Assembly: GCA_965216875.1 (NCBI GenBank)
Contig: OZ244207.1
Span: forward strand, 1,920,001-1,984,000
Direction: 5' to 3'
DNA length: 64,000 nucleotides
From: Rubripirellula sp.
GTDB taxonomy: Bacteria; Planctomycetota; Planctomycetia; Pirellulales; Pirellulaceae
Below are positions 57,054 to 61,418 of this stretch, piece after piece (positions within the stretch are counted from its first letter, which is position 1; each line of letters opens with the position of its first letter). Position numbers and translations under genes: made by a program. The notes under the pieces are model-generated. The model was not told where the DNA came from and made no database searches. It saw nothing but the letters and a program-made list of their open reading frames with translations.

Positions 57054-57108
57054 GTGTGGCGAGGATTTATGCACCCGTAGCAACGCTCGCCAGAATGCCG
57101 AGCTTCAA

Positions 57109-57178
57109 CATCGTCGCCTTTCGCTCCGCGAAAGTTGCGCCCGAAAACGCTACTTTCGCGGAGCGAAAGGCGACGATG
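57109..57178. repeat. Perfect 27-bp inverted repeat between convergent genes (REP-like, possible bidirectional terminator)
   Basis: catcgtcgcctttcgctccgcgaaagt / actttcgcggagcgaaaggcgacgatg. Confidence 0.85.
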
Positions 57179-57215
57179 GTTTTTGTGGCGTCGACAGAGA
57201 ATGCTCGCGTCATTT

Positions 57216-58124
57216 CTATTTGGCGTGCAAAAACATCCCGCACGAAGCTTGGACGTCGAATCCGACCCTCGGAATGACGCGAACGCGTGAGTTGGGGAGT
57301 CGACGGCGATAGACCTCGGCGCAACGTTCGATCACCGATTCGTTCGGTTCGCGTCCGTGTCGTACAGGATCAAGCGGGTTGTAACGCACGATGTTGATGT
57401 GCACCATCAATTTGCGGTTTTCAATCTCGTCGCAGATCGCGTGCACATCTTCGATGCGATCATTCTCACCTTCGATGAACGCGTAGTGAAGCTTGCAGAT
57501 CTTGTAGGTCGCGCGCTGATAGCTGGCCAACCGGTCCAACGCGTCACCATAGTGCATTGCCTTGGGAAGCCACTTGCGTCGAAATGCGTTTTCAACGCTG
57601 TAGATCGAATAATAGATCTCGGGGTGGTAGGTGAGGAAGATGTCCTCGAGCCTTCGATCACCGAGTGTTTTGGGCATAATCGTCGAAACGAGGTAGCGCG
57701 GGCGCACATTAAGGTGTTTGGCGCGCGCCGCGAGTCCGCCCAGAATCTCATCGGCGGAATCCAAAACGACTCGGCTTGCGAGTGCCTCGCCGCGTGCCAT
57801 GAAATTGAAGTGGACCGATTCCGCAGTTGGCGTCTCGGTTGCGTAGTAGTCAAGCACCACGTCTGCTTGATGCAGTAATTCGGTAACGCTCACATCGCGG
57901 GTTTGCGTCTGTTTGCTCGCGGTCAGGTGACACATTCGGCAACCGCGGTCACACCCAGTTTGCGAGGAAAGGTAAACTACGAAATAATCCTCGCGTCGGC
58001 GAACGTACCGCGCTTCGATACTGCCAACGTCGGCTGCAAACTCCCAATTGACTGAGGCGTCTTGTTCGCTGACAAAACGGCGTGCGTCTTCCAAGTCGGC
58101 CATCGAATCCGAAACGTGCGTCAT
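57216..58124 (-). CDS. Atypical RlmN/Cfr-family radical SAM protein
   Basis: YLSSQTGCDRGCRMC, NFMARGEAL, IEGEND, NIVRYNP, GFDVQASCGMF; SD ggaga upstream of 58124. Confidence 0.88.
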   Translation of the reverse strand: MTHVSDSMADLEDARRFVSEQDASVNWEFAADVGSIEARYVRRREDYFVVYLSSQTGCDRGCRMCHLTASKQTQTRDVSVTELLHQADVVLDYYATETPTAESVHFNFMARGEALASRVVLDSADEILGGLAARAKHLNVRPRYLVSTIMPKTLGDRRLEDIFLTYHPEIYYSIYSVENAFRRKWLPKAMHYGDALDRLASYQRATYKICKLHYAFIEGENDRIEDVHAICDEIENRKLMVHINIVRYNPLDPVRHGREPNESVIERCAEVYRRRLPNSRVRVIPRVGFDVQASCGMFLHAK

Positions 58125-58162
58125 CCCAATCTCCCAATGCGAAACACTTGTCACAAGATAGT

Positions 58163-58966
58163 GTGGTGCGACTAAAACGACAAACTGTCAGCGACTCGGT
58201 TCGGCATCAAGTGCTTGAGGGGGCGCTTGCGCGATTGGTGCAGGTGCAGACGAGCCATCCTTACGTCTTGCGGGGTGGCATGTTGTTGCGGCACTGGTTC
58301 ACCACGGTCGAGCGTCCCTCGACCGATATCGATTTGGTTTCACTCGACGAATTCGACGTCCAACGTGCGACGGAGGCACTCACGCCGTTGCTGCATGTGG
58401 ACCGGATCGATGACGGTGTTCAATTCGACACCGAGCGATGGCGAGTGCAACCGATTTGGATGGATACCGATTTTCCTGGGATCAGAATGATCGCATTGGC
58501 CACAGTCGACGCCCAACAGGTTGCATTCAGCGTTGACATTACGTTCGGTGAATCGCTGGTGCCGGAGCCGATGTTCGAGAAGCTTGAATCAGCCGCTGCG
58601 GGCCCGATCGAAATCCTGGCTTGTCGGCCCGAAGCGATCTTGGCTCGCAAACTGCAAGCGTTGAGCGATATGGCACTGCAACATTGGCGACCCAAAGACC
58701 TCAACGACATTTGGCATTTGCTTGAGTCGCGGCAACTTGATCGCCGTGACGTCGTCGATGCCATCCATTATTCATTCAACAGTCGAGGGTCGAGTGCCGG
58801 CGCCGCCCGCGATATGTTTGGGGAAGACTCTTGGTGGAAAACCCAGACCGCGAAGGCGCGATGGCGTGACTTTTGTGTTGCCAACCGGCATTGCGCCGGC
58901 ACCGCGTTGTCGCAAATCGTATCGGATGTCGCCCAGCAACTTGTGCCAGTACTAGGACAACTTTGA
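58163..58966 (+). CDS. AbiEii/AbiGii-family nucleotidyltransferase
   Basis: LRGG...RPSTDIDL, VDITFGE, EAILARK, RPKDLND; start uncertain. Confidence 0.85.
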   Translation: MVRLKRQTVSDSVRHQVLEGALARLVQVQTSHPYVLRGGMLLRHWFTTVERPSTDIDLVSLDEFDVQRATEALTPLLHVDRIDDGVQFDTERWRVQPIWMDTDFPGIRMIALATVDAQQVAFSVDITFGESLVPEPMFEKLESAAAGPIEILACRPEAILARKLQALSDMALQHWRPKDLNDIWHLLESRQLDRRDVVDAIHYSFNSRGSSAGAARDMFGEDSWWKTQTAKARWRDFCVANRHCAGTALSQIVSDVAQQLVPVLGQL

Positions 58967-60447: not shown

Positions 60448-60472
60448 ACCGCTTGCTTGGTCAAGCTAGTTG

Positions 60473-61285
60473 ATGACTGACCGCGCCTACTTAAACCATC
60501 GCGTCGCGTTTGCCGTTGGGACGGGGCGATGCGGGACGACCCTGCTTTGCGAACTCTTGCGACAAGAGCCATCAGTCGCGTCGTCGCATGAGCGCGCTCG
60601 ACTGCGCACGAACTTTCATATGTTCTGCAAATGGCACGGGATCGAAGTCGATCCCGAGGGATTCTTGCGGGCGAGACAACGCGAAATTGAAAGCGACTTT
60701 GAATCGCATCAGCACTCGTTTGAAAGTAGCGCTCTACTGTCGCACTCGATCGACGAGCTTGCCGATCGGTTTGCGGCAAAGTTTATCTGGCTCGTGCGCC
60801 ATCCGGCAGCGACTGTTGCGTCGTTTGCGGCGCGGGGGTGGTTCCGAGAAATTCAGTCACGGAGCAACCCACATTTGCCGCCTACCTACGAAGGACGCGA
60901 TGGCGAAAAGGCGCGTCACTTTTTTGGACGCATCATTCCCAATGGCGATGAATTCACCACGTTCGAGAAGATGACGCCGATTGGGCGCATCGCATGGTTC
61001 TGGCAAGCAAGGAACCGCGCGATTTCAGAGCAACTTCAGCGGCTTCCGCGATCGCAGTGGAAGCTGCAGAGAATCGAAGATCTCGATTTCCAAGCGTACC
61101 GCGAACTTACAGAGTTCATCGGATTCACTCCGAGTCTCAGCGAAGCGACGTTTGAGCAACTGGCATCCGCCAAAATCAATACAGGGCCCGAGCCAACAAC
61201 GGTTGATGCATGGAGCGAACAGGAAAAGGCGGAGTTCGAAGGGCAAGTCGCGGCGATGTCCGAGACACTGGCCTACAGTCTGTAA
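60473..61285 (+). CDS. Sulfotransferase family protein
   Basis: GTGRCGTT (5'-PSB loop); LVRHPAATVAS (3'-PB motif). Confidence 0.8.
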   Translation: MTDRAYLNHRVAFAVGTGRCGTTLLCELLRQEPSVASSHERARLRTNFHMFCKWHGIEVDPEGFLRARQREIESDFESHQHSFESSALLSHSIDELADRFAAKFIWLVRHPAATVASFAARGWFREIQSRSNPHLPPTYEGRDGEKARHFFGRIIPNGDEFTTFEKMTPIGRIAWFWQARNRAISEQLQRLPRSQWKLQRIEDLDFQAYRELTEFIGFTPSLSEATFEQLASAKINTGPEPTTVDAWSEQEKAEFEGQVAAMSETLAYSL

Positions 61286-61297
61286 TGTCGTCGAACC

Positions 61298-61418
61298 GTA
61301 GGGTGTGTGCTTGCACGCACCAAGACACTCAGGTGAAGGCCGCGGAGCGGCGAAGAGTGTGTTCCCACGGGGACCGTGGGAACAAGGTTGATGTAGGGTG
61401 TGTGCTTGCACGCACCAA
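61298..61418. repeat. Two direct family-C REP arms flanking a gttcccacgg/ccgtgggaac hairpin
   Basis: gtagggtgtgtgcttgcacgcaccaa at 61298 and 61393. Confidence 0.8.

Follow-up and report, generated by a model that had tools for sequence, protein, structure and literature searches.

An RlmN/Cfr-like radical SAM family with tyrosine at the resolving-cysteine position and a candidate conflict cassette around one of its cellular clades

The window gene and its protein

Escherichia coli RlmN is the methyl synthase for m2A2503 and m2A37, and Cfr is the m8A2503 resistance methylase. The chemistry of both enzymes is taught as requiring two cysteines, and the resolution of the adduct has been debated for a decade. 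According to the accessible parts of two sources, the second Cys deprotonates the cross-linked carbon, and mutants, among them C118A RlmN and C105A Cfr, fail to resolve the cross-link (PMC9692996; bioRxiv 2026.02.27.707579). The first of them also reports that losing the resolving Cys blocks turnover of RlmN and Cfr. In Cfr the C-beta of Ala105 lies 3.6 Å from C8, and the N-terminal HhH2 domain contacts the RNA backbone (bioRxiv 2026.02.27.707579).

We analyzed a gene within a stretch of 64,000 nucleotides of a Rubripirellula sp. genome (contig OZ244207.1), here referred to as the window. Its product, here named the Tyr enzyme, resembles RlmN and Cfr and carries Tyr at the resolving position. 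Its features and those of three adjacent genes are listed in Table 1.

Table 1. Features of the Tyr enzyme gene and its neighbours (positions in the window)
Feature	Position	Strand	Basis
Tyr enzyme: RlmN/Cfr-like radical SAM, 302 aa, PHROG 27142	57216..58124	-	profile matches, fold
Tyr51 codon (RlmN C118 / Cfr C105 position)	57972..57974	-	sequence and alignments
CX3CX2C cluster motif (C58, C62, C65)	57930..57953	-	sequence
MARGEA, residues 109-114 (family MARGEP; RlmN MGMGEP)	57783..57800	-	sequence and alignment
Cys295, methyl-accepting Cys (RlmN C355 / Cfr C338)	57240..57242	-	alignment
Shine-Dalgarno-like GGGAG, 6 nt before the ATG at 58124	58131..58135	-	read from sequence
AbiEii/DUF1814-type nucleotidyltransferase (NTase), divergent from the Tyr enzyme	58166..58966	+	PDLC02319 2.7e-49; start codon inferred
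TIGR02996 domain and ribonuclease-inhibitor-like LRR protein, 493 aa	58966..60447	+	start overlaps NTase stop
Sulfotransferase-fold protein, fourth cassette gene	60470..61285	+	PF13469, 33 bits, cut-off 27

The frame of the Tyr enzyme is open throughout. Within its 302 residues Y51 stands seven residues N-terminal to C58 (YLSSQTGC...DRGCRMC), and C295 lies inside DVQASCGMF. The preliminary description of this DNA had reported an intact CX3CX2C motif, an intact C-terminal methyl-accepting Cys and a Tyr seven residues before the first cluster Cys, and our reading agrees with it in all three respects, including the position of the codon. Its estimate of about 300 residues with almost no N-terminal domain was accurate too: the first cluster Cys is residue 58, versus 129 in the RlmN of the host, so that about 70 N-terminal residues, which form the helical RNA-binding domain, are missing, with the beta-extension kept. 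In the family a median of 40 residues precedes Y51, versus 121 before the equivalent Cys of the host RlmN. A search for fused long forms at E<=1e-40 among 7,999 candidates gave none, which is weak evidence.

The predicted model (pLDDT 94) matched the RlmN-tRNA complex 5HR7 best (Z 29.0, rmsd 2.7 Å, 280 residues aligned), and the first entry outside RlmN/Cfr followed at Z 17.4. The partial TIM barrel of radical SAM enzymes, the beta-extension and CX3CX2C are all present in sequence and model. RlmN and Cfr profiles scored the Tyr enzyme at 58-63 bits, with cut-offs of 290-550. The host genome carries a single canonical RlmN elsewhere (391 bits) with Cys at the C118 site (SICVSSQVGC). Among five other genomes with the cassette described below, three held an RlmN above the cut-off and two held sub-cut-off or partial RlmN-like genes.

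The GC3 of the Tyr enzyme gene equals that of the flanking host genes, and a promoter scan gave nothing scoring above shuffled sequence. Compared with seven kin, the window copy showed dN values of 0.22-0.33 and dS values from 1.7 to saturated, with a dN/dS of approximately 0.1-0.15 or lower; judged by these ratios, the gene is under purifying selection.

Tyrosine at the resolving position and the surrounding pocket

An alignment with RlmN and Cfr, which the preliminary description had proposed, placed Y51 without gaps on A118 of the RlmN C118A chain and on Cfr C105 (phmmer against solved chains). Further pairs, from the solved RlmN/Cfr chains and a profile alignment to the host RlmN, were E37 with E105/E91, M109 with M176/M155 and C295 with C355/C338. 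On the basis of the gap-free alignment and the same strand position, Tyr51 is assigned to the C118 site.

Tyr was found here in all 120 nearest homologues, in 147 of 147 non-gap rows of 151 representatives (35-69% identity) and in 188 of 188 copies cut from loci; these three sets overlap. At 50% identity 317 clusters score E<=1e-30, and the analysis covered the best 150 of them. The methyl-accepting Cys is kept in 149 of 150 non-gap rows and the activating Glu in 147 of 147, and the window copy carries every family-invariant residue of the 151-representative alignment. The preliminary description had considered two cases that would deprive the Tyr of meaning. The first, a Tyr unique to a decaying copy, fails on this invariance. 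The second, another Cys taking the resolving role, fails as well, since 21 of the 144 members with all four conserved Cys have no Cys besides the three cluster ligands and the methyl acceptor; a substitute Cys is therefore excluded for the family as a whole. As candidates, C210 and C231 are conserved among near homologues only (104/120 and 120/120, respectively), and C231 was ruled out as a family-wide resolving Cys by its presence in 36 of 151 representatives. The early remark that MGMGEP reads MARGEA is true of the window copy, but its P->A change is uninformative: the consensus of the family reads MARGEP, with P in 107 of 151 representatives and A in 29, which leaves G->A and M->R as the changes that carry information.

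The accessible part of bioRxiv 2025.09.18.677109 names 15 Cfr residues within 5 Å of A2503. At these Cfr/RlmN pocket positions the Tyr family retains only the Met and the methyl-Cys. Residues conserved in its own pocket are V41 (145/147), R43 (141/147), N107 (125/150), R286 (140/150), V287 (145/150) and S294 (147/150), and R111 is conserved as well. The equivalent of R344 (RlmN) or R327 (Cfr) is lost, and the median net charge of the family is 0. Judging from the alignments, the whole base-binding pocket has been rebuilt.

The methyl-loading and radical core is whole (E37, CX3CX2C, M109, G112-E113, S147, S173, N249, C295). E91, S189, S212, C338 and the cluster Cys, given as essential for Cfr in the accessible text of PMC2836569, all have counterparts. 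By analogy with RlmN and Cfr, methylation of C295 and formation of the methylene radical are likely. We infer from these sequence patterns that the first half of the RlmN mechanism is intact, that the pocket has been refitted to another base position and that Tyr was selected for a role, beyond mere tolerance.

Distribution of the family and the four-gene cassette

The preliminary description had also suggested a survey of homologues and their neighbourhoods, phages included. It gave an invariant Tyr in what is mostly a jumbo-phage and megaplasmid family, with a cassette in one cellular clade. Twenty-one phage records matched at 39-54%; they represent 16 phages with genomes of 207-357 kb, whose hosts are Pseudomonas, Caulobacter and Brevundimonas. 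The cultured phages 201phi2-1, Phabio, Psa21 and CcrColossus carry the Tyr enzyme, so its biology is open to study now. Large plasmids gave at least 8 matches at 41-48% among the 20 listed of 186. Confirmed stretches with the Tyr enzyme numbered 108 from viral contigs and 346 from metagenomes, and 80 of each were kept. The enzyme is rare in cells: it was found in 0 of 400 other genomes of the phylum sample, 1 of 60 relatives, 3 of 182 genomes of a Myxococcota class and 15 of 151 of a Gemmataceae-family sample. Taxon names of homologue sources are MAG titles and source labels.

No partner gene was conserved across the phage neighbourhoods. RtcB lies about 1 kb from the Tyr enzyme gene in one Pseudomonas-phage lineage, a CCA-adding enzyme about 2 kb from it in a Caulobacter/Brevundimonas phage lineage, and SpoU near it in locus L046. 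Other lineages have DNA ligase, RecA/UvsY, SbcC, dCMP deaminase or ThyX as neighbours. A tRNA fell inside the fetched flank of 23 of 90 viral/plasmid loci (a redundant set). Of 39 records searched, 31 contained tRNAs, within 8 kb of the Tyr enzyme gene in 10 of the 31, a count made solely on records that carry the gene. Jumbo phages are tRNA-rich in general according to the accessible part of a survey (PMC7824862), whose main text, as far as accessible, contains neither 'radical SAM' nor 'Cfr'. Because of this general richness, the 10 in 31 and the DNA-metabolism neighbours of other lineages, the phage tRNA link is weak.

Some loci showed peculiarities. CUA-anticodon (amber-reading) tRNAs were located about 2 kb from the gene in the phage loci L081, L082 and L094. 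In a small-genome lineage (L020, L021, L149, L152, L161, L162; one MAG titled Ca. Saccharibacteria) the gene lies next to a response regulator in convergent orientation and to one or two genes for tRNA-Ser, one of them called with anticodon ACT. The copy at L023:5959-7127 is apparently frameshifted, for which a sequencing error is possible. Additionally, two phages carry short RlmN-like enzymes that are 23% identical to the Tyr enzyme, lack the N-terminal domain and end in CGMF. That of Tunturiibacter phage Tunturi_5 (L238:3914-4912) keeps Cys at the C118 site; in that of Klebsiella phage 05F01 (L239:3878-4807) this site is Val, with a Cys three positions further on, and Leu replaces the conserved Met. 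The range of RlmN variants in phages seems to extend beyond the Tyr family, and, as these short enzymes without Tyr indicate, the N-terminal domain can be lost independently of Tyr.

In the window the Tyr enzyme gene is divergent from an operon of NTase, LRR and sulfotransferase genes. The catalytic GG..DxD and KxxD motifs of the NTase are invariant. PADLOC gave no match for the Tyr enzyme, the LRR protein or the sulfotransferase and thus covers the cassette through the NTase only; the sulfotransferase-fold protein had no match among PDB sequences. No AbiEi match was present among the four genes. The LRR protein is therefore taken as the probable antitoxin or sensor, by its fold resemblance to ribonuclease inhibitor.

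The close clade comprised 49 partly redundant loci (>=57% identity, window included), some of which were used to build the profiles. Five were too short; in 38 of the 44 informative loci the NTase is adjacent and divergent, with the Tyr enzyme as the gene upstream of it, and in six it is absent, one of these having an NTase 4 kb away and one having little upstream DNA. The LRR gene follows the NTase in 30 loci and is absent in 2; behind the LRR gene comes the sulfotransferase gene in 12 loci, and 8 loci long enough to show it lack it. Locus L016 (genome G498, flagged unpublished) is counted once in each of the tallies of 38, 30 and 12 and supplied one row of the NTase profile and one of the LRR profile; none of the conclusions rests on it alone. 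All 30 dereplicated cassette copies fell into one 35-row clade (FastTree support 100) amid mostly viral and unassigned rows. Since a single, very long outgroup branch sets the root, capture from a phage is a suggestion only. In a genome of the same genus the upstream M13-enolase pair is kept, and the 12 kb that follow contain none of the cassette genes. We regard the four-gene cassette around this cellular clade as new here and as a candidate conflict or defence system.

The cassette varies in several details. The window sulfotransferase is approximately 15-30 residues shorter at its end than seven aligned homologues and stops just before a repeat. REP-like short palindromic repeats lie on both sides of the cassette (57097-57179 and 61332-61417), each with about 300 BLAST matches in the genome. 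The cassette grows by duplication, with three tandem LRR genes in L113 (2320-7016) and two NTase-LRR pairs in L117 (3292-7888). In some Myxococcota, e.g. G751 (L214, L224), a single genome has as many as 5 NTase paralogues, most of them with an LRR gene. In L140, L202/L255 and L250 a sulfotransferase-fold gene directly follows the NTase and LRR is lacking, so the two may be alternative partners. NTase and LRR genes are apparently frameshifted in L222, L228 and L123, possibly by sequencing error. By eye, TTG(A/C)A(A/T)...GAGAAT recurs before the Tyr enzyme and TACACT, on the opposite strand, a few bases before the NTase start in cassette loci such as L117, L119, L124 and L136. This pattern suggests back-to-back promoters and a leaderless NTase mRNA; neither element is evident in the window copy.

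Furthermore, co-occurrence was assessed at genome level. The Tyr enzyme and the NTase clade mark exactly the same 15 of 151 genomes in the Gemmataceae-family sample; without the seed genome these are the same 14 of 150, with a nominal Fisher p of 6e-20 that is overstated because kin genomes are not independent. In some of the 15 both genes are unlinked, on different contigs and with other DNA beside the Tyr enzyme, and one (G816) has only weak matches for both. Conversely, among 21 NTase-clade matches in this sample the Tyr enzyme lies within 1.5 kb of 9 and not of 9 others, the remaining 3 being on stretches too short to tell; 18 of the 21 have an adjacent LRR gene. Among 61 relatives both genes occur in the same 2, and six others have distant NTases with ordinary AbiEi. 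In the 182 Myxococcota genomes the 3 with the Tyr enzyme hold the 3 strongest NTase matches, and 5 more have weaker NTase matches without it. Pooled, the cellular Tyr enzyme always comes with the NTase (20/20), and the NTase lacks it in 5 of 25. The NTase was found in 0 of 27 phage records, so the Tyr enzyme would work without it. Plasmids gave distant NTase matches only (2 of 4), and cellular family members outside the cassette clade a distant NTase at most (1 of 5).

Possible functions and comparison with known systems

Our tentative preference, at somewhat less than an even chance, is for an active radical enzyme that works through its methyl-Cys on an RNA nucleobase held in a new position, probably in tRNA, and uses Tyr as base. 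The Tyr enzyme would then represent a separate family of class-A (RlmN-type) radical SAM enzymes with catalytic activity. By homology, one SAM would methylate C295, a second would yield the 5'-dA radical, and the Cys-CH2 radical would add to an sp2 carbon of a nucleobase. Since the 3.6 Å gap in Cfr is too tight for a Tyr ring, the base would have to sit elsewhere (another site or another base), held in the pocket rebuilt with invariant Arg, Tyr and Asn residues. The phenol of Tyr51 could act as proton acceptor or radical relay, freeing the methylated product. The substrate would most likely be tRNA or an RNA loop resembling it, bound by an enzyme that lacks the N-terminal domain. In jumbo phages the Tyr enzyme would act alone, probably modifying tRNA during conflict over translation. 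Planctomycetes and Myxococcota may have acquired one clade and built it into a conflict cassette beside an NTase toxin of the tRNA-3'-end type, the LRR protein and often the sulfotransferase. The tRNA substrate, Tyr as base or relay and the conflict function are what we infer from this context.

In favour of RNA turnover are the 5HR7 match, the invariance of Tyr, purifying selection, the kept Cfr-essential residues and the remodelled, conserved pocket. Phage copies in tRNA arrays or near RtcB, the CCA-adding enzyme or SpoU in several lineages, and the NTase co-occurrence (15/15 of 151, 2/2 of 61 and 3/3 enzyme genomes of 182) point the same way. The partner NTase family (MenT-type) modifies and blocks tRNA CCA ends according to the accessible part of bioRxiv 2026.01.19.700257. 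On the other side, loss of the resolving Cys stops RlmN and Cfr (PMC9692996, accessible part), and no case of an RlmN-type adduct resolved by Tyr came up in the literature searched on RlmN/Cfr and the resolving Cys. The family has lost the R344/R327 equivalent and the N-terminal domain that binds RNA, and its median net charge is zero. In addition, the phage records lack the NTase and the co-occurring genomes may be kin.

The same radical chemistry might serve a non-RNA substrate, namely DNA, a free nucleotide or NTase product, or a protein, which we consider unlikely but a serious contender. The conserved arginines would then contact phosphates, and the product might be something other than a simple methyl group. 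The missing RNA-binding domain, the almost entirely changed pocket and the DNA-metabolism neighbours in several phage lineages fit this reading, as does the presence in one cassette of an NTase, a sulfotransferase and a methylase, all three of them group-transfer enzymes, which resembles a small tailoring pathway. However, the NTase is missing from 27 of 27 phage records, which speaks against a shared pathway intermediate, the nearest folds are RNA enzymes and several lineages show a tRNA or RNA-repair context.

A suicide trap, in which the Cys295-CH2-base adduct permanently blocks or shields tRNA or rRNA for want of a resolving Cys, appears rather unlikely. It would agree with the cross-linked C118A RlmN and C105A Cfr, the 21 of 144 members without a substitute Cys and the linkage to a translation-toxin family. 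Yet mere loss of the Cys would do for a trap and Tyr is fixed in every member, suggesting a positive role; jumbo phages rely on host translation; and the promoter-like elements of many cassettes, conserved by eye, fit steady expression. The Cys change belongs to a concerted rebuild, not to a simple loss, and the trap is therefore not favoured. Of the three readings in the preliminary description (RNA trapping, resolution through Tyr or another residue, a different substrate), a different substrate or site gains support from the rebuilt pocket.

Improbable, in our estimate, is a cassette acting as a restriction-modification-like system on tRNA, in which the mark of the Tyr enzyme would decide whether the NTase poisons a tRNA. 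The mark would be a novel methyl-nucleoside or a permanent protein-CH2-RNA adduct, made by a one-Cys/Tyr radical mechanism. Orphan phage copies would mark the phages' own tRNAs; phages carry orphan DNA methylases.

It is quite improbable that the protein binds RNA or uses SAM without group transfer, as a dominant-negative competitor of the host RlmN or as a SAM sink. Inactive RlmN variants are dominant negatives that block A2503 methylation (accessible part of PMC5062987), a precedent for such a competitor, and the Tyr ring could fill the base pocket. Against it stand the invariance of the methyl-Cys and of its activating Glu and the loss of the very domain by which a competitor would have to bind RNA. 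Decaying or neutral RlmN paralogy, to which the terminal branch of the window copy (0.42, longer than its sisters) might point, has a negligible probability and is ruled out by Tyr invariance, the low dN/dS, the intact frame and the presence of all conserved residues.

A large natural family that keeps the methyl-Cys and has Tyr fixed at the resolving site makes the two-Cys rule directly testable, and it should reveal either a new way of resolving the adduct, a hitherto undescribed RNA modification or a naturally occurring covalent trap for RNA. Together with the toxin-linked cassette, it points to new enzyme chemistry in phage-host conflict. In the accessible literature searched, with subscription papers and supplements outside the search, no description of the Tyr in an RlmN-like phage family or of the cassette was found, nor any paper on TIGR02996.

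The cassette resembles the AbiE and MenAT DUF1814 systems in its NTase, which matches PF08843, PADLOC AbiEii and PDB 9HLO (1e-9) and keeps the catalytic motifs. It differs in lacking AbiEi/MenA, in place of which the cassette has the LRR protein, the sulfotransferase-fold protein and the radical SAM enzyme. Distant NTase homologues (22-27%) do have AbiEi (6/6).

The Tyr enzyme itself is a member of the uncharacterised PHROG 27142, with a full-length match (369 bits, E 5.9e-110; TM 0.92; e.g. phage 201phi2-1 gp434, UniProt B3FJU2). This family is annotated only as 'Fe-S-cluster redox domain-containing', and its phage members are without the NTase cassette. With RlmN (3RFA, 5HR6/5HR7; TIGR00048) the Tyr enzyme shares the fold, CX3CX2C, E105, M176, GE and the methyl-accepting C355. 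It differs in C118->Tyr, loss of R344, SLH->SLY, MGMGEP->MARGEP and the absent N-terminal helical domain, at an identity of 19-24% and a TIGR00048 score of 61.4 bits (cut-off 290), and the host has a separate true RlmN. Cfr (9P0P; NF000424/TIGR04432) is the best sequence match among solved structures (4.8e-14) and shares RYNP and a mobile, non-housekeeping distribution. In contrast to Cfr, C105 is Tyr, the pocket determinants Y97, W101, S103, S151, Q329 and F330 are all replaced, the N-terminal domain is absent, NF000424 scores 63 bits (cut-off 530) and there is no sign of drug resistance. Class A radical SAM methylases use two catalytic cysteines in the two-Cys mechanism, whereas the Tyr enzyme has one; it may act like class A up to the cross-link and is not a standard member. 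The Tyr enzyme lies outside RlmN and Cfr and, by analogy, probably works like both up to the cross-link.
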